Source: Eledone cirrhosa
Taxonomy: Eukaryota
Direction: 5' to 3'
NCBI GenBank assembly: GCA_964016885.1
Contig: OZ024740.1
Coordinates: 304,544,001-304,608,000 of the forward strand
DNA length: 64,000 nt
Position 1 is the stretch's first letter. Each line of letters begins with the position of its first letter. The position numbers were made by a program, and so were the translations under genes. Positions 1 through 64,000 of the stretch are shown piece after piece. The notes under the pieces are model-generated. The model saw only the letters and a list, made by a program, of their open reading frames with translations, was not told the DNA's origin and did no database searches.

Positions 1-3000
1 TACACCCATCTGTTCACTCATTGTTGACTTAAACAGCATCAATAACTGCTACCACTACACCCATCTGTTCACTCATTGTTGACCTAAACAGCATCAATAA
101 CTACTACCACTACACCCATCTGTTCACTCATTGTTGACCTAAACAGCATCAATAACTACTACCACTACACCCATCTGTTCACTCAGCGTTGACCTAAACA
201 GCATCAATAACTACTACCACTACACCCATCTGTTCACTCATTGTTGACCTAAACAGCATCAATAACTACTACCACTACACCCATCTGTTCACTCAGCGTT
301 GACCTAAACAGCATCAATAACTACTACCACTACACCCATCTGTTCACTCAGCGTTGACCTAAACAGCATCAATAACTGCTACCACTACACCCATCTGTCA
401 CTCATTGTTGACCTAAACAGCATCAACAACTACTACCACTACACCCATCTGTTCACTCATTGTTCACCTAAACAGCATCAATAACTACTACCACTAGACC
501 CATCTGTTCAATCATGGTTGACCTAAACAGCATCAATAACTACTACCACTACACCCATCTGTTCACTCATTGTTGACCTAAACAGCATCAATAACTACTA
601 CCACTACACCCATCTGTTCACTCATTGTTCACCTAAACAGCATCAATAACTACTACCACTACACCCATCTGTTCACTCATGGTTGACCTAAACAGCATCA
701 ATAACTACTACCACTACACTCATCTGTTCACTCATTGTTGACCTGAACAGCATCAATAACTACTACCACTACACCCATCTGTCACTCATTGTTGACCTAA
801 ACAGTATCAATAACTACTACCACTACACCCATCTGTTCACTCATTGTTGACCTAAACAGCATCAATAACTACTACCACTACACCCATCTGTTCACTCATT
901 GTTGACCTAAACAGCATCAATAACTACTACCACTACACCCATCTGTTCACTCATTGTTCACCTAAACAGCATCAATAACTACTACCACTACACCCATCTG
1001 TTCACTCATGGTTGACCTAAACAGCATCAATAACTACTACCACTACACTCATCTGTTCACTCATTGTTGACCTAAACAGCATCAATAACTACTACCACTA
1101 CACCCATCTGTTCACTCATTGTTGACCTAAACAGCATCAACAACTACTACCACTACACCCATCTGTTCGCTCATTGTTCACCTAAACAGCATCAATAACT
1201 ACTACCACTACACCCATCTGTTCACTCATTGTTGACCTAAACAGCATCAATAACTACTACCACTACACCCATCTGTTCACTCATTGTTGACCTAAACAGT
1301 ATCAATAACTACTACCACTACACCCATCTGTTCACTCATTGTTGACCTAAACAGTATCAATAACTACTACCACTACACCCATCTGTTCAATCATGGTTGA
1401 CCTAAACAGCATCAATAACTACTACCACTACACCCATCTGTCACTCATTGTTGACCTAAACAGTATCAATAACTACTACCACTACACCCATCTGTTCAAT
1501 CATGGTTGACCGAAACAGCATCAATAACTACTACCACTACACTCATCTGTTCACTCATTGTTGACCTAAACAGCATCAATAACTACTACCACTACACCCA
1601 TCTGTCACTCATTGTTGACCTAAACAGTATCAATAACTACTACCACTACACCCATCTGTTCACTCATTGTTGACCTAAACAGCATCAATAACTACTACCA
1701 CTACACCCATCTGTTCACTCATTGTTGACCTAAACAGCATCAATAACTACTACCACTACACCCATCTGTTCACTCATTGTTGACCTAAACAGCATCAACA
1801 ACTACTACCACTACACCCATCTGTTCAATCATGGTTGACCTAAACAGCATCAATAACTACTACCACTACACCCATCTGTTCACTCATTGTTGACCTAAAC
1901 AGCATCAATAACTACTACCACTACACCCATCTGTTCACTCATTGTTGACCTAAACAGCATCAATAACTGCTACCACTACACCCATCTGTTCACTCATTGT
2001 TGACCTAAACAGCATCAATAACTACTACCACTACACCCATCTGTTCACTCATTGTTGACCTAAACAGCATCAATAACTACTACCACTACACCCATCTGTT
2101 CACTCATTGATGACCTAAACAGCATCAATAACTACTACCACTACACCCATCTGTTCACTCATTGTTGACCTAAACAGCATCAATAACTACTACCACTACA
2201 CCCATCTGTTCACTCATTGTTGACCTAAACTGTATCAATAACTACTACCACTACACCCATCTGTTCACTCATTGTTGACCTAAACAGTATCAATAACTAC
2301 TACCACTACACCCATCTGTTCACTCATTGTTGACCTAAACAGTATCAATAACTATTACCACTACACCCATCTGTTCACTCATTGTTGACCTAAACAGCAT
2401 CAATAACTACTACCACTACACCCATCTGTTCACTCATTGTTGACCTAAACAGCATCAATAACTGCTACCACTACACCCATCTGTTCACTCATTGTTGACC
2501 TAAACAGCATCAATAACTACTACCACTACACCCATCTGTCCACTCATTGTTGACCTAAACAGCATCAATAACTGCTACCACTACACCCATCTGTTCACTC
2601 ATTGTTGACCTAAACAGCATCAATAACTACTACCACTACACCCATCTGTCCACTCATTGTTGACCTAAACAGCATCAATAACTACTACCACTACACCCAT
2701 CTGTCCACTCATTGTTGACCTAAACAGCATCAATAACTACTACCACTACACCCATCTGTCCACTCATTGTTGACCTAAACAGCATCAATAACTACTACCA
2801 CTACACCCATCTGTTCACTCATTGTTGACCTAAACAGCATCAATAACTACTACCACTACACCCATCTGTTCACTCATTGTTGACCTAAACAGTATCAATA
2901 ACTACTACCACTACACCCATCTGTTCACTCATTGTTGACCTAAACAGCATCAATAACTGCTACCACTACACCCATCTGTTCACTCATTGTTGACCTAAAC

Positions 3001-6000
3001 AGCATCAATAACTACTACCACTACACCCATCTGTTCACTCAGCGTTGATCTAAACAGCATCAATAACTACTACCACTACACCCATCTGTTCACTCATTGT
3101 TGACCTCAACAGCATCAATAACTACTACCACTACACCCATCTGTTCACTCATTGTTGACCTAAATAGCATCAATAACTACTACCACTACACCCATCTGTT
3201 GACTCATTGTTGAGCTAAATAGCATCAATATCTACTACCACTACACCCATCTGTTCACTCATTGTTGACCTAAACAGTATCAATAAATACTACCACTACA
3301 TCCATCAGTTCACTCATTGTTGACCTAAACAGCATCAATAACTACTACCACTACACCCATCTGTTCACTCATTGTTGACCTAAACAGCATCAACAACTAC
3401 TACCACTACACCCATCTGTTCACTCAGCGTTGACCTAAACAGCATCAATAACTACTACCACTACACCCATCTGTCCACTCATTGTTGACCTAAACAGCAT
3501 CAATAACTGCTACCACTACACCCATCTGTTCACTCATTGTTGACCTAAACAGCATCAATAACTACTACCACTACACCCATCTGTTCACTCATTGTTGACC
3601 TAAACAGCATCAATAACTACTACCACTACACCCATCTGTTCACTCATTGTTCACCTAAACAGCATCAATAACTACTACCACTACACCCATCTGTTCACTC
3701 ATGGTTGACCTAAACAGCATCAATAACTACTACCACTACACTCATCTGTTCACTCATTGTTGACCTAAACAGCATCAATAACTACTACCACTACACCCAT
3801 CTGTTCACTCAGCGTTGACCTAAACAGCATCAATAACTACTACCACTACACCCATCTGTTCACTCATTGTTGACCTAAACAGCATCAATAACTGCTACCA
3901 CTACACCCATCAGTTCACTCATTGTTGACCTAAACAGCATCAACAACTACTACCACTACACCCATCTGTTCACTCATTGTTGACCTAAACAGTATCAATA
4001 ACTGCTACCACTACACCCATCAGTTCACTCATTGTTGACCTAAACAGCATCAATAACTACTACCACTACACCCATCTGTTCACTCATTGTTGACCTAAAC
4101 AGCATAAATAACTACTACCACTACACCCATCTGTTCACTCAGCGTTGACCTAAACAGCATCAATAACTACTACCACTACACCCATCTGTTCACTCAGCGT
4201 TGACCTAAACAGCATCAATAACTACTACCACTACACCCATCTGTTCACTCAGCGTTCACCTAAACAGCATCAATAACTGCTACCACTACACCCATCTGTC
4301 ACTCATTGTTGACCTAAACAGCATCAACAACTACTACCACTACACCCATCTGTTCACTCATTGTTCACCTAAACAGCATCAATAACTACTACCACTACAC
4401 CCATCTGTTCACTCATTGTTTACCTAAACAGCATCAATAACTACTACCACTACACCCATCTGTTCACTCATGGTTGACCTAAACAGCATCAATAACTACT
4501 ACCACTACACCCATCTGTTCACTCATTGTTGACCTAAACAGCATCAATAACTACTACCACTACACCCATCTGTTCACTCATTGTTGACCTAAACAGCATC
4601 AATAACTACTACCACTACACCCATCTGTTCACTCATGGTTGACCTAAACAGCATCAATAACTACTACCACTACACCCATCTGTTCACTCATTGTTGACCT
4701 AAACAGCATCAATAACTACTACCACTACACCCATCTGTTCACTCATTGTTGACCTAAACAGCATCAATAACTACTACCACTACACCCATCTGTTCACTCA
4801 TTGTTGACCTAAACAGCATCAATAACTACTACCACTACACCCATCTGTTCACTCATTGTTGACCTAAACAGCATCAATAACTACTACCACTACACCCATC
4901 TGTTCACTCATTGTTGACCTAAACAGCATCAATAACTACTACCACTACATCCATCTGTTCACTCATTGTTGACCTAAACAGCATCAATAACTACTACCAC
5001 TACACCCATCTGTTCACTCATTGTTGACCTAAACAGCATCAATAACTACTACCACTACACCCATCTGTTCACTCATTGTTGACTTAAACAGCATCAATAA
5101 CTGCTACCATTACACCCATCTGTTCACTCATTGTTGACCTAAACAGCATCAATAACTACTACCACTACATCCATCTGTTCACTCATTGTTGACCTAAACA
5201 GTATCAATAACTACTACCACTACACCCATCTGTTCACTCATTGTTGACTTAAACAGCATCAATAACTGCTACCACTACACCCATCTGTTCACTCATTGTT
5301 GACCTAAACAGCATCAATAACTACTACCACTACACCCATCTGTTCACTCATTGTTGACCTAAACAGCATCAATAACTACTACCACTACACCCATCTGTTC
5401 ACTCAGCGTTGACCTAAACAGCATCAATAACTACTACCACTACACCCATCTGTTCACTCATTGTTGACCTAAACAGCATCAATAACTACTACCACTACAC
5501 CCATCTGTTCACTCAGCGTTGACCTAAACAGCATCAATAACTACTACCACTACACCCATCTGTTCACTCAGCGTTGACCTAAACAGCATCAATAACTGCT
5601 ACCACTACACCCATCTGTCACTCATTGTTGACCTAAACAGCATCAACAACTACTACCACTACACCCATCTGTTCACTCATTGTTCACCTAAACAGCATCA
5701 ATAACTACTACCACTAGACCCATCTGTTCAATCATGGTTGACCTAAACAGCATCAATAACTACTACCACTACACCCATCTGTTCACTCATTGTTGACCTA
5801 AACAGCATCAATAACTACTACCACTACACCCATCTGTTCACTCATTGTTCACCTAAACAGCATCAATAACTACTACCACTACACCCATCTGTTCACTCAT
5901 GGTTGACCTAAACAGCATCAATAACTACTACCACTACACTCATCTGTTCACTCATTGTTGACCTGAACAGCATCAATAACTACTACCACTACACCCATCT

Positions 6001-8827
6001 GTCACTCATTGTTGACCTAAACAGTATCAATAACTACTACCACTACACCCATCTGTTCACTCATTGTTGACCTAAACAGCATCAATAACTACTACCACTA
6101 CACCCATCTGTTCACTCATTGTTGACCTAAACAGCATCAATAACTACTACCACTACACCCATCTGTTCACTCATTGTTCACCTAAACAGCATCAATAACT
6201 ACTACCACTACACCCATCTGTTCACTCATGGTTGACCTAAACAGCATCAATAACTACTACCACTACACTCATCTGTTCACTCATTGTTGACCTAAACAGC
6301 ATCAATAACTACTACCACTACACCCATCTGTTCACTCATTGTTGACCTAAACAGCATCAACAACTACTACCACTACACCCATCTGTTCGCTCATTGTTCA
6401 CCTAAACAGCATCAATAACTACTACCACTACACCCATCTGTTCACTCATTGTTGACCTAAACAGCATCAATAACTACTACCACTACACCCATCTGTTCAC
6501 TCATTGTTGACCTAAACAGTATCAATAACTACTACCACTACACCCATCTGTTCACTCATTGTTGACCTAAACAGTATCAATAACTACTACCACTACACCC
6601 ATCTGTTCAATCATGGTTGACCTAAACAGCATCAATAACTACTACCACTACACCCATCTGTCACTCATTGTTGACCTAAACAGTATCAATAACTACTACC
6701 ACTACACCCATCTGTTCAATCATGGTTGACCGAAACAGCATCAATAACTACTACCACTACACTCATCTGTTCACTCATTGTTGACCTAAACAGCATCAAT
6801 AACTACTACCACTACACCCATCTGTCACTCATTGTTGACCTAAACAGTATCAATAACTACTACCACTACACCCATCTGTTCACTCATTGTTGACCTAAAC
6901 AGCATCAATAACTACTACCACTACACCCATCTGTTCACTCATTGTTGACCTAAACAGCATCAATAACTACTACCACTACACCCATCTGTTCACTCATTGT
7001 TGACCTAAACAGCATCAACAACTACTACCACTACACCCATCTGTTCAATCATGGTTGACCTAAACAGCATCAATAACTACTACCACTACACCCATCTGTT
7101 CACTCATTGTTGACCTAAACAGCATCAATAACTACTACCACTACACCCATCTGTTCACTCATTGTTGACCTAAACAGCATCAATAACTGCTACCACTACA
7201 CCCATCTGTTCACTCATTGTTGACCTAAACAGCATCAATAACTACTACCACTACACCCATCTGTTCACTCATTGTTGACCTAAACAGCATCAATAACTAC
7301 TACCACTACACCCATCTGTTCACTCATTGATGACCTAAACAGCATCAATAACTACTACCACTACACCCATCTGTTCACTCATTGTTGACCTAAACAGCAT
7401 CAATAACTACTACCACTACACCCATCTGTTCACTCATTGTTGACCTAAACTGTATCAATAACTACTACCACTACACCCATCTGTTCACTCATTGTTGACC
7501 TAAACAGTATCAATAACTACTACCACTACACCCATCTGTTCACTCATTGTTGACCTAAACAGTATCAATAACTATTACCACTACACCCATCTGTTCACTC
7601 ATTGTTGACCTAAACAGCATCAATAACTACTACCACTACACCCATCTGTTCACTCATTGTTGACCTAAACAGCATCAATAACTGCTACCACTACACCCAT
7701 CTGTTCACTCATTGTTGACCTAAACAGCATCAATAACTACTACCACTACACCCATCTGTCCACTCATTGTTGACCTAAACAGCATCAATAACTGCTACCA
7801 CTACACCCATCTGTTCACTCATTGTTGACCTAAACAGCATCAATAACTACTACCACTACACCCATCTGTCCACTCATTGTTGACCTAAACAGCATCAATA
7901 ACTACTACCACTACACCCATCTGTCCACTCATTGTTGACCTAAACAGCATCAATAACTACTACCACTACACCCATCTGTCCACTCATTGTTGACCTAAAC
8001 AGCATCAATAACTACTACCACTACACCCATCTGTTCACTCATTGTTGACCTAAACAGCATCAATAACTACTACCACTACACCCATCTGTTCACTCATTGT
8101 TGACCTAAACAGTATCAATAACTACTACCACTACACCCATCTGTTCACTCATTGTTGACCTAAACAGCATCAATAACTGCTACCACTACACCCATCTGTT
8201 CACTCATTGTTGACCTAAACAGCATCAATAACTACTACCACTACACCCATCTGTTCACTCAGCGTTGATCTAAACAGCATCAATAACTACTACCACTACA
8301 CCCATCTGTTCACTCATTGTTGACCTCAACAGCATCAATAACTACTACCACTACACCCATCTGTTCACTCATTGTTGACCTAAATAGCATCAATAACTAC
8401 TACCACTACACCCATCTGTTGACTCATTGTTGAGCTAAATAGCATCAATATCTACTACCACTACACCCATCTGTTCACTCATTGTTGACCTAAACAGTAT
8501 CAATAAATACTACCACTACATCCATCAGTTCACTCATTGTTGACCTAAACAGCATCAATAACTACTACCACTACACCCATCTGTTCACTCATTGTTGACC
8601 TAAACAGCATCAACAACTACTACCACTACACCCATCTGTTCACTCAGCGTTGACCTAAACAGCATCAATAACTACTACCACTACACCCATCTGTCCACTC
8701 ATTGTTGACCTAAACAGCATCAATAACTGCTACCACTACACCCATCTGTTCACTCATTGTTGACCTAAACAGCATCAATAACTACTACCACTACACCCAT
8801 CTGTTCACTCATTGTTGACCTAAACAG
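1..8827. repeat. Higher-order duplication with a 5,220-bp (95-monomer) period
   Basis: 1-~3607 is repeated at 5221-~8827 with the same rare variants: acctgaacag (741/5961), tgtatcaata (2231/7451), actattacca (2351/7571), agcgttgatc (3041/8261). 95 x 55 minus five 1-bp deletions gives 5,220. Confidence 0.92.
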
Positions 8828-11800
8828 TATCAATAACTACTACCACTACACCCATCTGTTCACTCATTGTTGACCTAAACAGCATCAATAACTGCTACCA
8901 CTACACCCATCTGTTCACTCATTGTTGACCTAAACAGCATCAATAACTACTACCACTACACCCATCTGTTCACTCAGCGTTGACCTAAACAGCATCAATA
9001 ACTACTACCACTACACCCATCTGTTCACTCATTGTTGACCTCAACAGCATCAATAACTACTACCACTACACCCATCTGTTCACTCATTGTTGACCTAAAT
9101 AGCATCAATAACTACTACCACTACACCCATCTGTTGACTCATTGTTGAGCTAAATAGCATCAATATCTACTACCACTACACCCATCTGTTCACTCATTGT
9201 TGACCTAAACAGTATCAATAAATACTACCACTACATCCATCAGTTCACTCATTGTTGACCTAAACAGCATCAATAACTACTACCACTACACCCATCTGTT
9301 CACTCATTGTTGACCTAAACAGCATCAACAACTACTACCACTACACCCATCTGTTCACTCAGCGTTGACCTAAACAGCATCAATAACTACTACCACTACA
9401 CCCATCTGTTCACTCATTGTTGACCTAAACAGCATCAATATCTACTACCACTACACCCATCTGTTCACTCATTGTTGACCTAAACAGCATCAATAACTAC
9501 TACCACTACACCCATCTGTTCACTCATTGTTGACCTAAACAGCATCAATAACTACTACCACTACACCCATCTGTTCACTCAGCGTTGACCTAAACAGCAT
9601 CAATAACTACTACCACTACACCCATCTGTTCACTCATTGTTGACCTAAATAGCATCAATAACTACTACCACTACACCCATCTGTTGACTCATTGTTGAGC
9701 TAAATAGTATCAATAACTACTACCACTACACCCATCTGTTCACTCATTGTTGACCTAAACAGTATCATTAACTACTACCACTACACCCATCTGTTCACTC
9801 ATTGTTGACCTAAACAGCATCAATAACTACTACCACTACACCCATCTGTTCACTCATTGTTGACCTAAACAGCATCAATAACTACTACCACTACACCCAT
9901 CTGTTCACTCAGCGTTGACCTAAACAGCATCAATAACTACTACCACTACACCCATCTGTTCACTCATTGTTGACCTAAATAGCATCAATAACTACTACCA
10001 CTACACCCATCTGTTCACTCATTGTTGACCTAAACAGCATCAATAACTGCTACCACTACACCCATCTGCTGACTCATTGTTGAGCTAAACAGCATCAATA
10101 ACTACTACCACTACACCCATCTGTTCACTCATTGTTGACCTAAACAGCATCAATAACTACTACCACTACACCCATCTGTTCACTCAGCGTTGACCTAAAC
10201 AGCATCAATAACTACTACCACTACACCCATCTGTTCACTCATTGTTGACCTAAACAGCATCAATAACTACTACCACTACACCCATCTGTTCACTCAGCGT
10301 TGACCTAAACAGCATCAATAACTACTACCACTACACCCATCTGTTCACTCATTGTTGACCTAAATAGCATCAATAACTACTACCACTACACCCATCTGTT
10401 CACTCATTGTTGACCTAAACAGCATCAATAACTGCTACCACTACACCCATCTGTTGACTCATTGTTGAGCTAAACAGCATCAATAACTACTACCACTACA
10501 CCCATCTGTTCACTCATTGTTGACCTAAACAGCATCAATAACTACTACCACTACACCCATCTGTTCACTCAGCGTTGACCTAAACAGCATCAATAACTAC
10601 TACCACTACACCCATCTGTTGACTCATTGTTGAGCTAAATAGCATCAATAACTACTACCACTACACCCATCTGTTCACTCATTGTTGACCTAAACAGTAT
10701 CAATAACTACTACCACTACACCCATCTGTCACTCATTGTTGACCTAAACAGTATCAATAACTACTACCACTACACCCATCTGTTCACTCATTGATGACCT
10801 AAACAGCATCAATAACTACTACCACTACACCCATCTGTTCACTCATGGTTGACCTAAACAGTATCAATAACTACTACCACTACACCCATCTGTTCACTCA
10901 TTGTTGACCTAAACAGCATCAATAACTACTACCACTACACCCATCTGTTCACTCAGCGTTGACCTAAACAGCATCAATAACTACTACCACTACACCCATC
11001 TGTTCACTCAGCGTTGACCTAAACAGCATCAATAACTGCTACCACTACACCCATCTGTCACTCATTGTTGACCTAAACAACATCAACAACTACTACCACT
11101 ACACCCATCTGTTCACTCATTGTTCACCTAAACAGCATCAATAACTACTACCACTAGACCCATCTGTTCAATCATGGTTGACCTAAACAGCATCAATAAC
11201 TACTACCACTACACCCATCTGTCACTCATTGTTGACCTAAACAGTATCAATAACTACTACCACTACACCCATCTGTTCAATCATGGTTGACCTAAACAGC
11301 ATCAATAACTACTACCACTACACCCATCTGTTCACTCATTGTTCACCTAAACAGCATCAATAACTACTACCACTACACTCATCTGTTCACTCATTGTTGA
11401 CCTAAACAGCATCAATAACTACTACCACTACACCCATCTGTCACTCATTGTTGACCTAAACAGTATCAATAACTACTACCACTACACCCATCTGTTCACT
11501 CATTGTTGACCTAAACAGCATCAATAACTACTACCACTACACCCATCTGTTCACTCATTGTTCACCTAAACAGCATCAATAACTACTACCACTACACCCA
11601 TCTGTTCACTCATTGTTGACCTAAACAGCATCAATAACTACTACCACTACACCCATCTGTTCACTCATTGTTGACCTAAACAGTATCAATAACTACTACC
11701 ACTACACCCATCTGTTCAATCATGGTTGACCTAAACAGCATCAATAACTACTACCACTACACCCATCTGTTCACTCATTGTTGACCTAAACAGCATCAAT

Positions 11801-11999
11801 AACTACTACCACTACACCCATCTGTTCACTCATTGTTGACCTAAACAGCATCAATAACTACTACCACTACACCCATCTGTTCACTCAGCGTTGACCTAAA
11901 CAGCATCAACAACTACTACCACTACACCCATCTGTTCACTCATTGTTGACCTAAACAGCATCAATAACTACTACCACTACACCCATCTGTTCACTCATT

Positions 12000-14900
12000 G
12001 TTGACCTAAACAGCATCAATAACTACTACCACTACACCCATCTGTTCAATCATGGTTGACCTAAACAGCATCAATAACTACTACCACTACACCCATCTGT
12101 TCACTCATTGTTGACCTAAACAGCATCAATAACTACTACCACTACACCCATCTGTTCACTCATTGTTGACCTAAACAGCATCAATAACTGCTACCACTAC
12201 ACCCATCTGTCACTCATTGTTCACCTAAACAACATCAATAACTGCTACCACTACACCCATCTGTTCACTCATTGTTGACCTAAACAGCATCAATAACTAC
12301 TACCACTACACCCATCTGTCACTCATTGTTGACCTCAACAGCATCAATAACTACTACCACTACACCCATCTGTCACTCATTGTTGACCTCAACAGCATCA
12401 ATAACTACTACCACTACACCCATCTGTCATTCATTGTTGACCTAAACAGCATCAATAACTGCTACCACTACACCCATCTGTTCACTCATTGTTGACCTAA
12501 ACAGTATCAATAACTACTACCACTACATCCATCAGTTCACTCAGCGTTGACCTAAACAGCATCAATAACTACTACCACTACACCCATCTGTTCACTCATG
12601 GTTGACCTAAACAGCATCAATAACTGCTACCACTACACCCATCTGTTGACTCATGGTTGACCTAAACAGCATCAATAACTGCTACCACTACACCCATCTG
12701 TCCACTCATTGTTGACCTAAACAGCATCAATAACTACTACCACTACACCCATCTGTTGACTCATGGTTGACCTAAACAGTATCAATAACTACTACCACTA
12801 CACCCATCTGTCCACTCATTGTTGACCTAAACAGCATCAACAACTACTACCACTACACCCATCTGTTCACTCATTGTTGACCTAAACAGCATCAATAACT
12901 ACTACCACTACACCCATCTGTCACTCATTGTTGACCTAAACAGCATCAATAACTACTACCACTACACCCATCTGTTGACCCAGGGTTGACCTAAACAGTA
13001 TCAATAACTACTACCACTACACCCATCTGTTCACTCATTGTTGACCTAAACAGCATCAATAACTACTACCACTACACCCATCTGTTCACTAATGGTTGAC
13101 CTAAATAGCATCAATAACTACTACCACTACACCCATCTGCTCACTCATGGTTGACCTAAATAGCATCAATAACTACTACCACTACACCCATCTGTTCACT
13201 CATTGTTGACCTAAACAGCATCAATAACTGCTACCACTACACCCATCAGTTCACTCATTGTTGACCTAAACAGCATCAACAACTACTACCACTACACCCA
13301 TCTGTTCACTCATTGTTGACCTAAACAGTATCAATAACTGCTACCACTACACCCATCAGTTCACTCATTGTTGACCTAAACAGCATCAATAACTACTACC
13401 ACTACACCCATCTGTTCACTCATTGTTGACCTAAACAGCATAAATAACTACTACCACTACACCCATCTGTTCACTCAGCGTTGACCTAAACAGCATCAAT
13501 AACTACTACCACTACACCCATCTGTTCACTCAGCGTTGACCTAAACAGCATCAATAACTACTACCACTACACCCATCTGTTCACTCATTGTTGACCTAAA
13601 CAGCATCAATAACTGCTACCACTACACCCATCAGTTCACTCATTGTTGACCTAAACAGCATCAACAACTACTACCACTACACCCATCTGTTCACTCATTG
13701 TTGACCTAAACAGTATCAATAACTGCTACCACTACACCCATCAGTTCACTCATTGTTGACCTAAACAGCATCAATAACTACTACCACTACACCCATCTGT
13801 TCACTCATTGTTGACCTAAACAGCATAAATAACTACTACCACTACACCCATCTGTTCACTCAGCGTTGACCTAAACAGCATCAATAACTACTACCACTAC
13901 ACCCATCTGTTCACTCAGCGTTGACCTAAACAGCATCAATAACTACTACCACTACACCCATCTGTTCACTCAGCGTTGACCTAAACAGCATCAATAACTG
14001 CTACCACTACACCCATCTGTCACTCATTGTTGACCTAAACAGCATCAACAACTACTACCACTACACCCATCTGTTCACTCATTGTTCACCTAAACAGCAT
14101 CAATAACTACTACCACTACACCCATCTGTTCACTCATTGTTTACCTAAACAGCATCAATAACTACTACCACTACACCCATCTGTTCACTCATGGTTGACC
14201 TAAACAGCATCAATAACTACTACCACTACACCCATCTGTTCACTCATTGTTGACCTAAACAGCATCAATAACTACTACCACTACACCCATCTGTTCACTC
14301 ATTGTTGACCTAAACAGCATCAATAACTACTACCACTACACCCATCTGTTCACTCATGGTTGACCTAAACAGCATCAATAACTACTACCACTACACCCAT
14401 CTGTTCACTCATTGTTGACCTAAACAGCATCAATAACTACTACCACTACACCCATCTGTTCACTCATTGTTGACCTAAACAGCATCAATAACTACTACCA
14501 CTACACCCATCTGTTCACTCATTGTTGACCTAAACAGCATCAATAACTACTACCACTACACCCATCTGTTCACTCATTGTTGACCTAAACAGCATCAATA
14601 ACTACTACCACTACACCCATCTGTTCACTCATTGTTGACCTAAACAGCATCAATAACTACTACCACTACATCCATCTGTTCACTCATTGTTGACCTAAAC
14701 AGCATCAATAACTACTACCACTACACCCATCTGTTCACTCATTGTTGACCTAAACAGCATCAATAACTACTACCACTACACCCATCTGTTCACTCATTGT
14801 TGACTTAAACAGCATCAATAACTGCTACCATTACACCCATCTGTTCACTCATTGTTGACCTAAACAGCATCAATAACTACTACCACTACATCCATCTGTT

Positions 14901-48000: not shown

Positions 48001-51000
48001 ATTGTTGACCTAAACAGCATCAACAACTACTACCACTACACCCATCTGTTCACTCATTGTTCACCTAAACAGCATCAATAACTACTACCACTACACCCAT
48101 CTGTTCACTCATTGTTTACCTAAACAGCATCAATAACTACTACCACTACACCCATCTGTTCACTCATGGTTGACCTAAACAGCATCAATAACTACTACCA
48201 CTACACCCATCTGTTCACTCATTGTTGACCTAAACAGCATCAATAACTACTACCACTACACCCATCTGTTCACTCATTGTTGACCTAAACAGCATCAATA
48301 ACTACTACCACTACACCCATCTGTTCACTCATGGTTGACCTAAACAGCATCAATAACTACTACCACTACACCCATCTGTTCACTCATTGTTGACCTAAAC
48401 AGCATCAATAACTACTACCACTACACCCATCTGTTCACTCATTGTTGACCTAAACAGCATCAATAACTACTACCACTACACCCATCTGTTCACTCATTGT
48501 TGACCTAAACAGCATCAATAACTACTACCACTACACCCATCTGTTCACTCATTGTTGACCTAAACAGCATCAATAACTACTACCACTACACCCATCTGTT
48601 CACTCATTGTTGACCTAAACAGCATCAATAACTACTACCACTACATCCATCTGTTCGCTCATTGTTGACCTAAACAGCATCAATAACTACTACCACTACA
48701 CCCATCTGTTCACTCATTGTTGACCTAAACAGCATCAATAACTACTACCACTACACCCATCTGTTCACTCATTGTTGACTTAAACAGCATCAATAACTGC
48801 TACCATTACACCCATCTGTTCACTCATTGTTGACCTAAACAGCATCAATAACTACTACCACTACATCCATCTGTTCACTCATTGTTGACCTAAACAGCAT
48901 CAATAACTACTACCACTAGACCCATCTGTTCAATCATGGTTGACCTAAACAGCATCAATAACTACTACCACTACACCCATCTGTCACTCATTGTTGACCT
49001 AAACAGTATCAATAACTACTACCACTACACCCATCTGTTCAATCATGGTTGACCTAAACAGCATCAATAACTACTACCACTACACCCATCTGTTCACTCA
49101 TTGTTCACCTAAACAGCATCAATAACTACTACCACTACACTCATCTGTTCACTCATTGTTGACCTAAACAGCATCAATAACTACTACCACTACACCCATC
49201 TGTCACTCATTGTTGACCTCAACAGCATCAATAACTACTACCACTACACCCATCTGTCACTCATTGTTGACCTCAACAGCATCAATAACTACTACCACTA
49301 CACCCATCTGTCACTCATTGTTGACCTAAACAGCATCAATAACTGCTACCACTACACCCATCTGTTCACTCATTGTTGACCTAAACAGTATCAATAACTA
49401 CTACCACTACATCCATCAGTTCACTCAGCGTTGACCTAAACAGCATCAATAACTACTACCACTACACCCATCTGTTCACTCATGGTTGACCTAAACAGCA
49501 TCAATAACTGCTACCACTACACCCATCTGTTGACTCATGGTTGACCTAAACAGCATCAATAACTGCTACCACTACACCCATCTGTCCACTCATTGTTGAC
49601 CTAAACAGCATCAATAACTACTACCACTACACCCATCTGTTGACTCATGGTTGACCTAAACAGTATCAATAACTACTACCACTACACCCATCTGTCCACT
49701 CATTGTTGACCTAAACAGCATCAACAACTACTACCACTACACCCATCTGTTCACTCATTGTTGACCTAAACAGCATCAATAACTACTACCACTACACCCA
49801 TCTGTCACTCATTGTTGACCTAAACAGCATCAATAACTACTACCACTACACCCATCTGTTGACTCAGGGTTGACCTAAACAGTATCAATAACTACTACCA
49901 CTACACCCATCTGTTCACTCATTGTTGACCTAAACAGCATCAATAACTACTACCACTACACCCATCTGTTCACTAATGGTTGACCTAAATAGCATCAATA
50001 ACTACTACCACTACACCCATCTGCTCACTCATGGTTGACCTAAATAGCATCAATAACTACTACCACTACACCCATCTGTTCACTCATTGTTGACCTAAAC
50101 AGCATCAATAACTGCTACCACTACACCCATCAGTTCACTCATTGTTGACCTAAACAGCATCAACAACTACTACCACTACACCCATCTGTTCACTCATTGT
50201 TGACCTAAACAGTATCAATAACTGCTACCACTACACCCATCAGTTCACTCATTGTTGACCTAAACAGCATCAATAACTACTACCACTACACCCATCTGTT
50301 CACTCATTGTTGACCTAAACAGCATAAATAACTACTACCACTACACCCATCTGTTCACTCAGCGTTGACCTAAACAGCATCAATAACTACTACCACTACA
50401 CCCATCTGTTCACTCAGCGTTGACCTAAACAGCATCAATAACTACTACCACTACACCCATCTGTTCACTCATTGTTGACCTAAACAGCATCAATAACTGC
50501 TACCACTACACCCATCAGTTCACTCATTGTTGACCTAAACAGCATCAACAACTACTACCACTACACCCATCTGTTCACTCATTGTTGACCTAAACAGTAT
50601 CAATAACTGCTACCACTACACCCATCAGTTCACTCATTGTTGACCTAAACAGCATCAATAACTACTACCACTACACCCATCTGTTCACTCATTGTTGACC
50701 TAAACAGCATAAATAACTACTACCACTACACCCATCTGTTCACTCAGCGTTGACCTAAACAGCATCAATAACTACTACCACTACACCCATCTGTTCACTC
50801 AGCGTTGACCTAAACAGCATCAATAACTACTACCACTACACCCATCTGTTCACTCAGCGTTGACCTAAACAGCATCAATAACTGCTACCACTACACCCAT
50901 CTGTCACTCATTGTTGACCTAAACAGCATCAACAACTACTACCACTACACCCATCTGTTCACTCATTGTTCACCTAAACAGCATCAATAACTACTACCAC

Positions 51001-54000
51001 TACACCCATCTGTTCACTCATTGTTTACCTAAACAGCATCAATAACTACTACCACTACACCCATCTGTTCACTCATGGTTGACCTAAACAGCATCAATAA
51101 CTACTACCACTACACCCATCTGTTCACTCATTGTTGACCTAAACAGCATCAATAACTACTACCACTACACCCATCTGTTCACTCATTGTTGACCTAAACA
51201 GCATCAATAACTACTACCACTACACCCATCTGTTCACTCATGGTTGACCTAAACAGCATCAATAACTACTACCACTACACCCATCTGTTCACTCAGCGTT
51301 GACCTAAACAGCATCAATAACTACTACCACTACACCCATCTGTTCACTCATTGTTGACCTAAACAGCATCAATAACTGCTACCACTACACCCATCAGTTC
51401 ACTCATTGTTGACCTAAACAGCATCAACAACTACTACCACTACACCCATCTGTTCACTCATTGTTGACCTAAACAGTATCAATAACTGCTACCACTACAC
51501 CCATCAGTTCACTCATTGTTGACCTAAACAGCATCAATAACTACTACCACTACACCCATCTGTTCACTCATTGTTGACCTAAACAGCATAAATAACTACT
51601 ACCACTACACCCATCTGTTCACTCAGCGTTGACCTAAACAGCATCAATAACTACTACCACTACACCCATCTGTTCACTCAGCGTTGACCTAAACAGCATC
51701 AATAACTACTACCACTACACCCATCTGTTCACTCAGCGTTGACCTAAACAGCATCAATAACTGCTACCACTACACCCATCTGTCACTCATTGTTGACCTA
51801 AACAGCATCAACAACTACTACCACTACACCCATCTGTTCACTCATTGTTCACCTAAACAGCATCAATAACTACTACCACTACACCCATCTGTTCACTCAT
51901 TGTTTACCTAAACAGCATCAATAACTACTACCACTACACCCATCTGTTCACTCATGGTTGACCTAAACAGCATCAATAACTACTACCACTACACCCATCT
52001 GTTCACTCATTGTTGACCTAAACAGCATCAATAACTACTACCACTACACCCATCTGTTCACTCATTGTTGACCTAAACAGCATCAATAACTACTACCACT
52101 ACACCCATCTGTTCACTCATGGTTGACCTAAACAGCATCAATAACTACTACCACTACACCCATCTGTTCACTCATTGTTGACCTAAACAGCATCAATAAC
52201 TACTACCACTACACCCATCTGTTCACTCATTGTTGACCTAAACAGCATCAATAACTACTACCACTACACCCATCTGTTCACTCATTGTTGACCTAAACAG
52301 CATCAATAACTACTACCACTACACCCATCTGTTCACTCATTGTTGACCTAAACAGCATCAATAACTACTACCACTACACCCATCTGTTCACTCATTGTTG
52401 ACCTAAACAGCATCAATAACTACTACCACTACATCCATCTGTTCACTCATTGTTGACCTAAACAGCATCAATAACTACTACCACTACACCCATCTGTTCA
52501 CTCATTGTTGACCTAAACAGCATCAATAACTACTACCACTACACCCATCTGTTCACTCATTGTTGACTTAAACAGCATCAATAACTGCTACCATTACACC
52601 CATCTGTTCACTCATTGTTGACCTAAACAGCATCAATAACTACTACCACTACATCCATCTGTTCACTCATTGTTGACCTAAACAGTATCAATAACTACTA
52701 CCACTACACCCATCTGTTCACTCATTGTTGACTTAAACAGCATCAATAACTGCTACCACTACACCCATCTGTTCACTCATTGTTGACCTAAACAGCATCA
52801 ATAACTACTACCACTACACCCATCTGTTCACTCATTGTTGACCTAAACAGCATCAATAACTACTACCACTACACCCATCTGTTCACTCAGCGTTGACCTA
52901 AACAGCATCAATAACTACTACCACTACACCCATCTGTTCACTCATTGTTGACCTAAACAGCATCAATAACTACTACCACTACACCCATCTGTTCACTCAG
53001 CGTTGACCTAAACAGCATCAATAACTACTACCACTACACCCATCTGTTCACTCAGCGTTGACCTAAACAGCATCAATAACTGCTACCACTACACCCATCT
53101 GTCACTCATTGTTGACCTAAACAGCATCAACAACTACTACCACTACACCCATCTGTTCACTCATTGTTCACCTAAACAGCATCAATAACTACTACCACTA
53201 GACCCATCTGTTCAATCATGGTTGACCTAAACAGCATCAATAACTACTACCACTACACCCATCTGTTCACTCATTGTTGACCTAAACAGCATCAATAACT
53301 ACTACCACTACACCCATCTGTTCACTCATTGTTCACCTAAACAGCATCAATAACTACTACCACTACACCCATCTGTTCACTCATGGTTGACCTAAACAGC
53401 ATCAATAACTACTACCACTACACTCATCTGTTCACTCATTGTTGACCTAAACAGCATCAATAACTACTACCACTACACCCATCTGTCACTCATTGTTGAC
53501 CTAAACAGTATCAATAACTACTACCACTACACCCATCTGTTCACTCATTGTTGACCTAAACAGCATCAATAACTACTACCACTACACCCATCTGTTCACT
53601 CATTGTTGACCTAAACAGCATCAATAACTACTACCACTACACCCATCTGTTCACTCATTGTTCACCTAAACAGCATCAATAACTACTACCACTACACCCA
53701 TCTGTTCACTCATTGTTCACCTAAACAGCATCAATAACTACTACCACTACACCCATCTGTTCACTCATGGTTGACCTAAACAGCATCAATAACTACTACC
53801 ACTACACTCATCTGTTCACTCATTGTTGACCTAAACAGCATCAATAACTACTACCACTACACCCATCTGTTCACTCATTGTTGACCTAAACAGCATCAAC
53901 AACTACTACCACTACACCCATCTGTTCACTCATTGTTCACCTAAACAGCATCAATAACTACTACCACTACACCCATCTGTTCACTCATTGTTGACCTAAA

Positions 54001-56400
54001 CAGCATCAATAACTACTACCACTACACCCATCTGTTCACTCATTGTTGACCTAAACAGTATCAATAACTACTACCACTACACCCATCTGTTCACTCATTG
54101 TTGACCTAAACAGTATCAATAACTACTACCACTACACCCATCTGTTCAATCATGGTTGACCTAAACAGCATCAATAACTACTACCACTACACCCATCTGT
54201 CACTCATTGTTGACCTAAACAGTATCAATAACTACTACCACTACACCCATCTGTTCAATCATGGTTGACCGAAACAGTATCAATAACTACTACCACTACA
54301 CCCATCTGTTCACTCATTGTTGACCTAAACAGTATCAATAACTACTACCACTACATCCATCAGTTCACTCATTGTTGACCTAAACAGCATCAATAACTAC
54401 TACCACTACACCCATCTGTTCACTCATTGTTGACCTAAACAGCATAAATAACTACTACCACTACACCCATCTGTTCACTCAGCGTTGACCTAAACAGCAT
54501 CAATAACTACTACCACTACACCCATCTGTTCACTCAGCGTTAACCTAAACAGCATCAATAACTGCTACCACTACACCCATCTGTCACTCATTGTTGACCT
54601 AAACAGCATCAACAACTACTACCACTACACCCATCTGTTCACTCATTGTTCACCTAAACAGCATCAATAACTACTACCACTACACCCATCTGTTCACTCA
54701 TTGTTTACCTAAACAGCATCAATAACTACTACCACTACACCCATCTGTTCACTCATTGTTGACCTAAACAGCATCAATAACTACTACCACTACACCCATC
54801 TGTTCACTCATTGTTGACCTAAACAGCATCAATAACTACTACCACTACACCCATCTGTTCACTCAGCGTTGACCTAAACAGCATCAATAACTGCTACCAC
54901 TACACCCATCTGTCACTCATTGTTGACCTAAACAGCATCAACAACTACTACCACTACACCCATCTGTTCACTCATTGTTCACCTAAACAGCATCAATAAC
55001 TACTACCACTACACCCATCTGTTCACTCATGGTTGACCTAAACAGCATCAATAACTACTACCACTACACCCATCTGTTCACTCATTGTTGACCTAAACAG
55101 CATCAATAACTACTACCACTACACCCATCTGTTCACTCATTGTTGACCTAAACAGCATCAATAACTACTACCACTACACCCATCTGTTCACTCATGGTTG
55201 ACCTAAACAGCATCAATAACTACTACCACTACACCCATCTGTTCACTCATTGTTGACCTAAACAGCATCAATAACTACTACCACTACACCCATCTGTTCA
55301 CTCATTGTTGACCTAAACAGTATCAATAACTACTACCACTACACCCATCTGTTCACTCATGGTTGACCTAAACAGCATCAATAACTACTACCACTACACC
55401 CATCTGTTCACTCATTGTTGACCTAAACAGCATCAATAACTACTACCACTACACCCATCTGTTCACTCATTGTTGACCTAAACAGCATCAATAACTACTA
55501 CCACTACACCCATCTGTTCACTCATGGTTGACCTAAACAGCATCAATAACTACTACCACTACACCCATCTGTTCACTCATTGTTGACCTAAACAGCATCA
55601 ATAACTACTACCACTACACCCATCTGTTCACTCATTGTTGACCTAAACAGCATCAATAACTACTACCACTACACCCATCTGTTCACTCATGGTTGACCTA
55701 AACAGCATCAATAACTACTACCACTACACCCATCTGTTCACTCATTGTTGACCTAAACAGCATCAATAACTACTACCACTACACCCATCTGTTCACTCAT
55801 TGTTGACCTAAACAGTATCAATAACTACTACCACTACACCCATCTGTTCACTCATGGTTGACCTAAACAGCATCAATAACTACTACCACTACACCCATCT
55901 GTTCACTCATTGTTGACCTAAACAGCATCAATAACTACTACCACTACACCCATCTGTTCACTCATTGTTGACCTAAACAGCATCAATAACTACTACCACT
56001 ACACCCATCTGTTCACTCATGGTTGACCTAAACAGCATCAATAACTACTACCACTACACCCATCTGTTCACTCATTGTTGACCTAAACAGCATCAATAAC
56101 TACTACCACTACACCCATCTGTTCACTCATTGTTGACCTAAACAGTATCAATAACTACTACCACTACACCCATCTGTTCACTCATGGTTGACCTAAACAG
56201 CATCAATAACTACTACCACTACACCCATCTGTTCACTCATTGTTGACCTAAACAGCATCAATAACTACTACCACTACACCCATCTGTTCACTCATTGTTG
56301 ACCTAAACAGCATCAATAACTACTACCACTACACCCATCTGTTCACTCATGGTTGACCTAAACAGCATCAATAACTACTACCACTACACCCATCTGTTCA
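39100..56400. repeat. 9,884-bp higher-order duplication (boundaries approximate)
   Basis: CAGGG at 39983/49867 and CAGCGTTAAC at 44657/54541 share the 9,884 offset. The 165-bp trimer run is also duplicated (45146-46466 and ~55030-56350). Confidence 0.85.
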
Positions 56401-59400
56401 CTCATTGTTGACCTAAACAGCATCAATAACTACTACCACTACACCCATCTGTTCACTCATTGTTGACCTAAACAGCATCAATAACTACTACCACTACACC
56501 CATCTGTTCACTCATTGTTGACCTAAACAGCATCAATAACTACTACCACTACACCCATCTGTTCACTCATTGTTGACCTAAACAGCATCAATAACTACTA
56601 CCACTACACCCATCTGTTCACTCATTGTTGACCTAAACAGCATCAATAACTACTACCACTACATCCATCTGTTCACTCATTGTTGACCTAAACAGCATCA
56701 ATAACTACTACCACTACACCCATCTGTTCACTCATTGTTGACCTAAACAGCATCAATAACTACTACCACTACACCCATCTGTTCACTCATTGTTGACTTA
56801 AACAGCATCAATAACTGCTACCATTACACCCATCTGTTCACTCATTGTTGACCTAAACAGCATCAATAACTACTACCACTACATCCATCTGTTCACTCAT
56901 TGTTGACCTAAACAGTATCAATAACTACTACCACTACACCCATCTGTTCACTCATTGTTGACTTAAACAGCATCAATAACTGCTACCACTACACCCATCT
57001 GTTCACTCATTGTTGACCTAAACAGCATCAATAACTACTACCACTACACCCATCTGTTCACTCATTGTTGACCTAAACAGCATCAATAACTACTACCACT
57101 ACACCCATCTGTTCACTCAGCGTTGACCTAAACAGCATCAATAACTACTACCACTACACCCATCTGTTCACTCATTGTTGACCTAAACAGCATCAATAAC
57201 TACTACCACTACACCCATCTGTTCACTCAGCGTTGACCTAAACAGCATCAATAACTACTACCACTACACCCATCTGTTCACTCAGCGTTGACCTAAACAG
57301 CATCAATAACTGCTACCACTACACCCATCTGTCACTCATTGTTGACCTAAACAGCATCAACAACTACTACCACTACACCCATCTGTTCACTCATTGTTCA
57401 CCTAAACAGCATCAATAACTACTACCACTAGACCCATCTGTTCAATCATGGTTGACCTAAACAGCATCAATAACTACTACCACTACACCCATCTGTTCAC
57501 TCATTGTTGACCTAAACAGCATCAATAACTACTACCACTACACCCATCTGTTCACTCATTGTTGACCTAAACAGCATCAATAACTACTACCACTACACCC
57601 ATCTGTTCACTCATTGTTCACCTAAACAGCATCAATTACTACTACCACTACACCCATCTGTTCACTCATGGTTGACCTAAACAGCATCAATAACTACTAC
57701 CACTACACTCATCTGTTCACTCATTGTTGACCTAAACAGCATCAATAACTACTACCACTACACCCATCTGTTCACTCATTGTTGACCTAAACAGCATCAA
57801 CAACTACTACCACTACACCCATCTGTTCACTCATTGTTCACCTAAACAGCATCAATAACTACTACCACTACACCCATCTGTTCACTCATTGTTGACCTAA
57901 ACAGCATCAATAACTACTACCACTACACCCATCTGTTCACTCATTGTTGACCTAAACAGTATCAATAACTACTACCACTACACCCATCTGTTCACTCATT
58001 GTTGACCTAAACAGTATCAATAACTACTACCACTACACCCATCTGTTCAATCATGGTTGACCTAAACAGCATCAATAACTACTACCACTACACCCATCTG
58101 TCACTCATTGTTGACCTAAACAGTATCAATAACTACTACCACTACACCCATCTGTTCAATCATGGTTGACCGAAACAGTATCAATAACTACTACCACTAC
58201 ACCCATCTGTTCACTCATTGTTGACCTAAACAGTATCAATAACTACTACCACTACATCCATCAGTTCACTCATTGTTGACCTAAACAGCATCAATAACTA
58301 CTACCACTACACCCATCTGTTCACTCATTGTTGACCTAAACAGCATAAATAACTACTACCACTACACCCATCTGTTCACTCAGCGTTGACCTAAACAGCA
58401 TCAATAACTACTACCACTACACCCATCTGTTCACTCAGCGTTGACCTAAACAGCATCAATAACTGCTACCACTACACCCATCTGTCACTCATTGTTGACC
58501 TAAACAGCATCAACAACTACTACCACTACACCCATCTGTTCACTCATTGTTCACCTAAACAGCATCAATAACTACTACCACTACACCCATCTGTTCACTC
58601 ATTGTTTACCTAAACAGCATCAATAACTACTACCACTACACCCATCTGTTCACTCATTGTTGACCTAAACAGCATCAATAACTACTACCACTACACCCAT
58701 CTGTTCACTCATTGTTGACCTAAACAGCATCAATAACTACTACCACTACACCCATCTGTTCACTCATTGTTGACCTAAACAGCATCAATAACTACTACCA
58801 CTACACCCATCTGTTCACTCATTGTTGACCTAAACAGCATCAATAACTACTACCACTACACCCATCTGTTCACTCATTGTTGACCTAAACAGCATCAATA
58901 ACTACTACCACTACACCCATCTGTTCACTCAGCGTTGACCTAAACAGCATCAATAACTACTACCACTACACCCATCTGTTCACTCATTGTTGACCTAAAT
59001 AGCATCAATAACTACTACCACTACACCCATCTGTTCACTCATTGTTGACCTAAACAGTATCAATAACTACTACCACTACATCCATCAGTTCAATCATTGT
59101 TGACCTAAACAGCATCAATAACTACTACCACTACACCCATCTGTCACTCATGGTTGACCTAAACAGCATCAACAACTACTACCACTACACCCATCTGTTC
59201 ACTCATTGTTCACCTAAACAGCATCAACAACTACTACCACTAGACCCATCTGTTCAATCATGGTGGACCTAAACAGCATCAATAACTACTACCACTACAC
59301 CCATCTGTTCACTCATGGTTGACATAAACAGCATCAATAACTACTACCACTACACCCATCTGTTCACTCATTGTTGACCTAAACAGCATCAACAACTACT

Positions 59401-59520
59401 ACCACTACACCCATCTGTTCACTCATGGTTGACATAAACAGCATCAATAACTACTACCACTACACCCATCTGTTGACTCATGGTTGACCTAAACATTATC
59501 AACAGCTACAACAAATTCTA

Positions 59521-59556
59521 ATTAGTTTAATTATGTATTTATTTGTTTTCACTCAG
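59521..59556 (+). promoter_or_regulatory. 3' splice site region (T-rich tract and CAG acceptor; possible branch point TTAAT at ~59527-59531)
   Basis: attagtttaattatgtatttatttgttttcactcag directly precedes the open exon frame. Confidence 0.8.
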
Positions 59557-59748: not shown

Positions 59749-59754
59749 GTAAAT
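59746..59754 (+). promoter_or_regulatory. 5' splice donor ACG|GTAAAT
   Basis: GTAA donor where the sequence switches to AT/T-rich composition. Read-through reaches an in-frame TAA about 10 codons later. Confidence 0.75.
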
Positions 59755-61535: not shown

Positions 61536-64000
61536 TTGTTTTCTATCTATAGAATGGTACACTGTTGTGTTAACATTGTTCCCTCTTTATAGAATGGTAC
61601 ACTGTTGTATTAACATTGTTCCCTCTTTATAGAATGGTACACTGTTGTATTAACATTGTTCCCTATCTATAGAATGGTACACTGTTGTGTTAACATTGTT
61701 CCCTATCTATAGAATGGTACACTGTTGTGTTAACATTGTTCCCTATCTATAGAATGGTACACTGTTGTATTAACATTGTTCCCTCTTTATAGAATGGTAC
61801 ACTGTTGTATTAACATTGTTCCCTCTTTATAGAATGGTACACTGTTGTATTAACATTGTTCCCTCTTTATAGAATGGTACACTGTTGTATTAACATTGTT
61901 CCCTATCTATAGAATGGTACACTGTTGTGTTAACATTGTTCCCTATCTATAGAATGGTACACTGTTGTATTAACATTGTTCCCTCTTTATAGAATGGTAC
62001 ACTGTTGTATTAACATTGTTCCCTCTTTATAGAATGGTACACTGTTGTATTAACATTGTTCCCTCTTTATAGAATGGTACACTGTTGTATTAACATTGTT
62101 CCCTCTTTATAGAATGGTACACTGTTGTATTAACATTGTTCCCTATCTATAGAATGGTACACTGTTGTATTAACATTGTTCCCTATCTATAGAATGGTAC
62201 ACTGTTGTATTAACATTGTTCCCTCTTTATAGAATGGTACACTGTTGTATTAACATTGTTCCCTCTTTATAGAATGGTACACTGTTGTATTAACATTGTT
62301 CCCTATCTATAGAATGGTACACTGTTGTGTTAACATTGTTCCCTATCTATAGAATGGTACACTGTTGTATTAACATTGTTCCCTATCTATAGAATGGTAC
62401 ACTGTTGTGTTAACATTGTTCCCTATCTATAGAATGGTACACTGTTGTGTTAACATTGTTCCCTATCTATAGAATGGTACACTGTTGTATTAACATTGTT
62501 CCCTCTTTATAGAATGGTACACTGTTGTATTAACATTGTTCCCTCTTTATAGAATGGTACACTGTTGTATTAACATTGTTCCCTATCTATAGAATGGTAC
62601 ACTGTTGTGTTAACATTGTTCCCTATCTATAGAATGGTACACTGTTGTATTAACATTGTTCCCTATCTATAGAATGGTACACTGTTGTGTTAACATTGTT
62701 CCCTATCTATAGAATGGTACACTGTTGTGTTAACATTGTTCCCTATCTATAGAATGGTACACTGTTGTGTTAACATTGTTCCCTATCTATAGAATGGTAC
62801 ACTGTTGTATTAACATTGTTCCCTATCTATAGAATGGTACACTGTTGTGTTAACATTGTTCCCTATCTATAGAATGGTACACTGTTGTGTTAACATTGTT
62901 CCCTATCTATAGAATGGTACACTGTTGTGTTAACATTGTTCCCTATCTATAGAATGGTACACTGTTGTGTTAACATTGTTCCCTATCTATAGAATGGTAC
63001 ACTGTTGTGTTAACATTGTTCCCTATCTATAGAATGGTACACTGTTGTATTAACATTGTTCCCTATCTATAGAATGGTACACTGTTGTGTTAACATTGTT
63101 CCCTATCTATAGAATGGTACACTGTTGTATTAACATTGGTCCCTATCTATAGAATGGTACACTGTTGTGTTAACATTGTTCCCTATCTATAGAATGGTAC
63201 ACTGTTGTATTAACATTGTTCCCTATCTATAGAATGGTACACTGCTGTGTTAACATTGTTCCCTATCTATAGAATGGTACACTGTTGTGTTAACATTGTT
63301 CCCTATCTATAGAATGGTACACTGTTGTATTAACATTGTTCCCTATCTATAGAATGGTACACTGTTGTATTAACATTGTTCCCTATCTATAGAATGGTAC
63401 ACTTTTGTGTTAACATTGTTCCCTATCTATAGAATGGTACACTGTTGTGTTAACATTGTTCCCTATCTATAGAATGGTACACTGTTGTATTAACATTGTT
63501 CCCTATCTATAGAATGGTACACTGCTGTGTTAACATTGTTCCCTATCTATAGAATGGTACACTGTTGTGTTAACATTGTTCCCTATCTATAGAATGGTAC
63601 ACTGTTGTATTAACATTGTTCCCTATCTATAGAATGGTACACTGTTGTATTAACATTGTTCCCTATCTATAGAATGGTACACTTTTGTGTTAACATTGTT
63701 CCCTATCTATAGAATGGTACACTGTTGTGTTAACATTGTTCCCTATCTATAGAATGGTACACTGTTGTGTTAACATTGTTCCCTATCTATAGAATGGTAC
63801 ACTGTTGTGTTAACATTGTTCCCTATCTATAGAATGGTACACTGTTGTATTAACATTGTTCCCTCTTTATAGAATGGTACACTGTTGTATTAACATTGTT
63901 CCCTCTTTATAGAATGGTACACTGTTGTATTAACATTGTTCCCTCTTTATAGAATGGTACACTGTTGTATTAACATTGTTCCCTATCTATAGAATGGTAC
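61536..64000. repeat. 40-bp satellite/minisatellite tandem array, ~61 copies, open at the right edge
   Basis: Monomer CCCTATCTATAGAATGGTACACTGTTGTGTTAACATTGTT has an exact 40-bp period with no indels. Main polymorphisms are CCCTATCTAT/CCCTCTTTAT and GTGT/GTAT. Confidence 0.99.

Follow-up and report, generated by a model that had tools for sequence, protein, structure and literature searches.

How does a short coding exon come to lie between two long satellite arrays, and what have those arrays made of the gene to which it belongs? The stretch of DNA analysed here (the window, 64 kb without N) raises this question directly. An initial annotation, made from the letters of the window, had read it as a lone exon of a chromatin-protein gene whose introns had each become gigantic by amplification of their own repeat. 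The features of the window are these:

1..59509, + strand: 3' half of the 55-bp array of intron 6; the start of the array lies outside the window, 61,157 bp to the left
59510..59556, + strand: unique last 47 bp of intron 6, containing a pyrimidine tract and the AG acceptor, which is used in contig X4
59557..59748, + strand: APLF-like gene, seventh of 12 coding exons; 192 nt, phase 1-1 (exon mapping and contig X4)
59749..61535, + strand: 5' unique part of intron 7, with GT donor
near 60011-60223: high-copy dispersed repeat in intron 7
60391-60441: TA/TG microsatellite in intron 7
61536..64000, + strand: start of the 40-bp array of intron 7; nearly all units carry an acceptor-like motif

An exon of an APLF-like gene

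Most of what had been claimed for the exon and its surroundings stands. The exon is intact, preceded by AG and followed by GT, with one frame open and neither an ATG-started nor a stop-ended reading. Upstream lies a pure 55-bp satellite, present in 1,084 copies in the window at 96% matches (Tandem Repeats Finder) and with no non-satellite insert within 1-59495, which ends 47 bp before exon 7; this short spacer also contains a candidate branch-point-like motif. The preceding exon does lie more than 59.5 kb upstream, since intron 6 measures 121,619 bp. The claim of a 40-bp satellite downstream was right about the array but not about its position, which begins 1,787 bp past the donor and not at the exon.

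With its flanks, exon 7 has one match in the 3.0-Gb genome, in which the window is C1:304544001-304608000. Its peptide shares 90% identity with a 607-aa Argonauta hians protein (P0002) named aprataxin and PNK-like factor, a match that would place the genome among the octopods. P0002 maps to collinear plus-strand exons spanning 215 kb around the window. The gene model, whose exon boundaries were set by hand, has 12 exons, a frame of 613 aa whose only stop is the terminal one, and GT-AG ends at 11 of 11 introns. Its protein is identical to P0002 in 529 of 616 aligned columns (86%), with exons 1-3 at 85-100% identity.

The product is a chromatin and DNA-repair protein, as the expectation of a chromatin-protein gene had implied, and is APLF-like in combining an FHA domain with two PBZ fingers. 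Residues 3-100 of P0002 have the FHA domain of human APLF as their best PDB match (E 5e-19), and Pfam FHA matches in the protein fall below the cut-off when taken alone. Two tandem PBZ zinc fingers are found in P0002 (PF10283, two stretches, E 2.5e-20); in the octopod's own protein the PBZ motif occurs at 472 and 528, and the C-terminal part matches the APLF PBZ pair. The last 50 residues are 26% D/E with a Trp at 590, and this tail did not align to human APLF. Exon 7 itself encodes a low-complexity linker, both basic and acidic, in which Pfam recognised no family when the exon peptide was scanned by itself and whose GRGRP motif we take to be AT-hook-like. A search of the octopod protein for R..P.W, which we assume to be the Ku-binding pattern, gave no match (Trp occurs only at 353, 362 and 590), and because this motif was not found we call the gene APLF-like and not APLF. 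The likeness to human APLF, in the part of the source drawn on here (PMC5207133; PDB 5w7w, 2kqb), consists of an N-terminal FHA domain, tandem PBZ fingers and perhaps an acidic C-terminal part, whereas the octopod protein has no R-x-x-P-x-W in its mid region and a longer linker that was not alignable by the tools used.

Both junctions that had been predicted, at 59557 and 59748, are used in the spliced-looking contig X4. This contig of 1,924 nt matches 59556-59748 and nothing beyond, without a single difference. On each side of the match 30 loose letters are visible, and these are the last 30 nt of exon 6 and the first 30 nt of exon 8. X4 is one contig from one study, a second sample under the same organism label; it carries no RNA record and is taken as RNA because it joins exons. 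We considered a retrocopy as its source and found this unlikely, since contigs of X1-X3 carry intron flanks at exon 7 and the assembly holds no second copy.

In a related organism (B, run X5), 15 positions of exon 7 differ. Of these, 14 fall on the third base of a codon and 13 are synonymous, where the expected synonymous share is 24% (136 of 567 possible changes; P = 5.5e-7, uncorrected for transition bias). Exon 7 is real, used and under purifying selection. It had also been allowed that the exon might prove to be an orphan duplicate. Such an orphan, or a pseudo-exon stranded between satellites while the real gene lies elsewhere, is extremely improbable given the single genome match, the splicing to both neighbours, the collinearity of all other exons and the excess of synonymous differences just described. 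The APLF-like gene is thus intact and single-copy, and exon 7 is one of its internal, spliced exons. The X5 contig extends only 30 loose letters upstream of the exon, inside the unique spacer, and is uninformative on the array of organism B.

Two arrays in two introns

The idea that each intron carries its own repeat is borne out for introns 6 and 7, which hold different arrays; of the gene's 11 introns, only these 2 are array-filled. Intron 6 is 99.2% array, and intron 7 (14,291 bp) is 87.3% array; the remaining nine introns measure 1.7-35.9 kb and contain no array above a few hundred bases. In full, the 55-bp array is a gap-free 120,667 bp of 2,197 copies and the 40-bp array 12,483 bp of 312 copies, at 40% and 34% GC respectively, on the 443-Mb scaffold C1. 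Between the end of the 40-bp array and exon 8 (window coordinate 74040) there are 21 bp. The DNA left outside the arrays is therefore divided unequally, with 905 bp (intron 6) and 1,787 bp (intron 7) on the donor side and the 47 and 21 bp already given on the acceptor side, an asymmetry that we noticed post hoc.

A k-mer check of locus specificity, as had been proposed, found both monomers confined to this locus, with genome counts equal to local counts: 1,239 and 1,239 for an exact 24-nt word of the 55-mer, 1,968 and 1,968 for a second word of the 55-mer with 2 mismatches, and 262 and 262 for an exact 21-nt word of the 40-mer. On the opposite strand, the words of both monomers had no match in the genome.

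Unequal exchange is an established process in tandem arrays, and the internal structure of the 55-bp array bears traces of duplication at a larger scale than the unit. Only 146 distinct units occur among 2,196, which lie 2.4% from consensus. Exact adjacent duplications involve blocks of 95, 86, 57, 46 and 41 units (2-5 kb), arranged head-to-tail with a lag equal or near equal to their length, and an exact repeat of 133 units (7.3 kb) recurs at lag 180. No fixed higher-order repeat was found in this array, the best lag identities being 0.13-0.14 versus a background of 0.04. Variants are recurrent and shift gradually along the array, with singletons at 17 of 75. This pattern is consistent with recent growth in place, probably by the copying of multi-kilobase blocks.

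Exact internal repeats of this length, up to 133 units, are also what would be seen if the array's size were a product of assembly, with haplotypes or blocks joined in tandem and the real intron 6 much shorter or longer. The array's length is that given by the assembly, and at another locus, discussed below, scaffolding is probably imperfect. We nevertheless judge this explanation rather unlikely. There is no N in the 294 kb around the locus, the recurrent variants change gradually with few singletons, and the unit exists nowhere else and must therefore lie between exons 6 and 7. In addition, DNA contigs of X1-X3, which may come from the assembly's own sample, cross the exon-side edge without a loose end.

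The two arrays differ in the splice-like sites that they present. By a crude count, neither donor-like nor acceptor-like sites occur on the sense strand of the 55-bp array (0.0 per kb each). The 40-bp array has 24 acceptor-like and 0.1 donor-like sites per kb, and 296 of its units carry an acceptor-like motif with a donor-like partner almost absent; X4 uses the true acceptor of exon 8 and not these decoys. The 55-bp array further contains 34 canonical poly(A) hexamers (9 AATAAA and 25 ATTAAA), which might favour an mRNA made without transcribing the array, by trans-splicing of two pre-mRNAs or by an internal restart. This is very unlikely, however, because the exons stand in order on a single strand and their introns have ordinary GT-AG ends, and because read-through of far larger satellite introns has been shown in Drosophila, in the part of that study used here (PMC6508621).

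As to where the units came from, a search of about 0.53 Mb of non-array DNA for a seed of the 55- and 40-mers returned only microsatellite-like or weak matches (best E 0.015 and 0.42), and the 38-mer of a nearby array had a diverged copy in the region (E 0.009, same search). Comparison of three units with the 12 exons of this one gene and their 30-nt flanks gave no exon-derived unit (best 22 bits, E 0.1).

Tandem arrays elsewhere in the genome

Our survey took ten-kb stretches from 38 preset positions, 20 at even spacing along C1 and 18 on C2-C11, a small sample weighted to C1. Eight of the 38 were at least 95% tandem array (95% interval 10-37%), and these eight have eight different main units of 19-101 bp. 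Arrays of 4 kb or more made up 21.7% of the 380 kb surveyed. It is likely that locally grown repeat arrays fill about a fifth of the genome.

A second comparison concerned genes. From 72 myosin-head matches we chose 8 loci with large gaps, and only 2 of these 8 contained arrays of 10 kb or more. One is a myosin-IX gene on C3, confirmed with an Argonauta ortholog. It has 8 collinear exon matches over 315 kb and is known here from genome sequence. Array makes up 62% of 275 kb examined (of 320 kb) in this gene, in 11 different units of 26-59 bp, the largest array spanning about 81 kb if the gaps between the examined pieces are counted in. There is a strand switch within this gene, where scaffolding is probably imperfect. 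By comparison, Rad50 and 9 of 9 multi-exon chaperonin loci, 10 housekeeping loci in all, are compact, with spans of at most 33 kb that are to be read as floors. Array-filled introns are thus not the rule in this genome.

Two generalizations from the APLF-like gene were rejected. Units are not generally locus-specific, since neither of two other units tested was single-locus: the C6 45-mer had 1,641 genome matches versus 480 local ones, as scattered single copies, and the L069 19-mer was also found on C1. One of these two is a fragment of a dispersed repeat. Nor is there general selection against splice decoys, as the sense strand of most myosin-IX arrays is rich in donor-like sites.

The survey bears on whether the 55-bp array is functional, for example by delaying or gating APLF expression or by binding RNA proteins in the manner of a Y-loop. 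Intron 6 is about 22 times the mean intron of Octopus minor (5.4 kb in the part of the genome report cited, PMC6279123), and the 55-bp array shows no splice-like site on its sense strand, both of which could point to such a role. Against it, about 22% of the bases sampled lie in arrays whose units are unrelated, and the units here are young and unique; a weaker point is that a related Logan protein, P0003, reads 38 codons upstream of exon 7 that are unlike any frame of the unit. We consider a function of this kind quite unlikely.

The flanking arrays are instead probably explained by near-neutral local tandem amplification inside introns, where neutrality is inferred from the commonness of arrays. 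A short unique intronic stretch would first have been duplicated; unequal exchange or copying associated with repair would then have enlarged it and, in doing so, homogenised the units. Spreading would halt at the edge of the splice signals, 47 and 21 bp short of the acceptors. Exon 7 may then be recognised by exon definition, because the 55-bp unit has no sense-strand sites and the decoy acceptors of the 40-bp unit have no donor partner. On this view Pol II would also cross the 121.6 kb of intron 6 without a break, as the spliced product suggests. The same process is likely at work across the genome, of whose habit the APLF-like gene is likely one case.

Significance and comparison with known systems

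Our findings bear on how introns become very large. Here a demonstrably spliced gene has come to giant introns by a route for which neither a build-up of transposons nor a Y chromosome is needed. As either unit is diagnostic of its own locus, the two arrays could serve as single-locus FISH and k-mer probes for studying how 100 kb of pure repeat is traversed by Pol II and the spliceosome, and at what rate arrays change. The size and annotation of cephalopod genomes are also concerned: in one octopus, RNA-seq introns were limited to 20 kb during annotation, in the part of the paper cited (PMC9795677), and a gene of such structure would therefore be split. The single gene is a good example and not a new mechanism; the genome-wide habit is the more interesting lead.

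Minisatellites (VNTRs) and macrosatellites have units of 10-100 bp that grow via unequal exchange and gene conversion, and typical VNTRs are well under 20 kb. The 55-bp array shares with them a single-locus unit and reaches 2,197 copies. Octopus genomes were already known to be repeat-rich, given the 5.4-kb mean introns and 14.7% simple repeats of Octopus minor (PMC6279123, as excerpted), and in the open-access literature we found no account of single-locus arrays this large in cephalopod introns.

The initial annotation had drawn a parallel with the Drosophila Y-linked genes kl-3 and kl-5, for which the part of Fingerhut et al. (2019, PMC6508621) considered here describes introns of about 99% satellite in a functional, correctly spliced gene. 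The parallel is apt for a satellite-filled intron in a spliced gene, but it makes the gene look more exceptional than it is, given that about 22% of the bases sampled lie in long arrays and that only 2 of 11 introns are array-filled. The Drosophila introns consist of megabases of simple 5-bp satellites (AATAT, AAGAC) on the heterochromatic Y, whereas the octopod intron, at 121.6 kb, holds 0.12 Mb of a complex 55-bp single-locus unit. Furthermore, kl-3 and kl-5 are spermatocyte-specific and need Blanks and Heph, while the octopod case is a DNA-repair gene.

A closer counterpart may be the sequence stuttering of chicken dot-chromosome genes, so far as the cited part of Hron et al. (2026, PMC12954441) describes it. 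There, as here, an intron has a private unit, tens of bases long and expanded locally, and arrays of local origin are confined to introns while coding exons stay intact; local origin, with one or several units per intron, is found in the APLF-like gene and probably also in myosin IX. The differences lie in scale and setting. The chicken example intron measures 1.6-2.9 kb and lies on GC-rich microchromosomes, whereas the octopod figures are 12-121 kb and 34-40% GC, in regular head-to-tail arrays on a 443-Mb scaffold and outside any GC-rich dot-chromosome setting. Occasional exon-derived units occur in chicken, in contrast to the APLF-like gene, where none was found. Extensive variation in intron length between individuals is also described there (PMC12954441, same part).

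The best reading is that the genome habit resembles chicken stuttering at a far larger scale more than it does Drosophila Y-loops. We lean slightly toward a broader view, in which the octopod lineage would be subject to genome-wide local tandem amplification: thousands of unrelated 20-100-bp units may have grown to 10-100 kb and more, filling about one-fifth of the genome and making satellite-filled giants of ordinary expressed genes, with a separate unit for each intron. Gene lengths would then be hypervariable between individuals, and the whole would form an AT-rich invertebrate counterpart of avian sequence stuttering, 10-100-fold larger.

Intron 7 and tandem repeats around the APLF-like gene

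The 40-bp array that begins within the window (61536-64000) and fills most of intron 7 of the APLF-like gene is built from a unit resembling a 3' splice site, with 296 copies acceptor-like, and the true acceptor lies only 21 bp past the end of the array. The unit may have originated from the true-acceptor region. Elsewhere in the gene, a short, diverged 48-bp tandem patch precedes the 55-bp array of intron 6, and introns 1 and 10 each carry a similar patch; it is possible that these 48-bp patches represent small seeds of the same local tandem amplification proposed for the large intronic arrays. Two further arrays flank the gene on its scaffold (C1 of the Eledone cirrhosa assembly, G000), and the 27/28-bp unit recurs in a second, short patch at C1:304423578.

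C1:304414001-304419697, 27/28-bp unit array, at least 5.7 kb, upstream of the gene
C1:304481983-304482446, 48-bp tandem patch, past the exon 6 donor and ahead of the 55-bp array
Window 60011-60223, dispersed repeat of very high copy number in intron 7, with contigs from three runs reaching depths in the millions
C1:304665372-304674416, 38-bp unit array, 9 kb, downstream of the gene

Intronic arrays and a strand switch in the myosin-IX gene

The 5' introns of the myosin-IX gene on scaffold C3 (C3:886078-1201001) contain 11 different tandem arrays with units of 26-59 bp, the largest spanning approximately 81 kb. The two parts of this gene lie on opposite strands:

C3:640524-1201001, minus strand, N-terminal exons, residues 1-1075
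C3:1763183-1798149, plus strand, C-terminal exons, residues 1270-1969, 0.56 Mb past the start

This strand switch probably reflects a scaffold piece placed in the wrong orientation, or possibly a real inversion.

Units at multiple sites and scaffold sizes

Some units occur at more than one place. Exact matches to a 19-bp unit number 19,392; they all lie on a single strand and are spread over at least two scaffolds. The 45-bp unit of an array on C6, flanked by two myosin-head exon matches, is also scattered in more than 1,100 further copies, so this array was seeded by a fragment of a dispersed repeat.

C1:279407886 onward, 19-bp unit
C5:60.0 Mb, 19-bp unit
C6:99966272-100003949, 45-bp unit array, 37.7 kb

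The scaffolds themselves indicate a very uneven karyotype, with four at 379-443 Mb followed by others of 135, 103 and 94 Mb and the remainder smaller, perhaps as a result of fusions.
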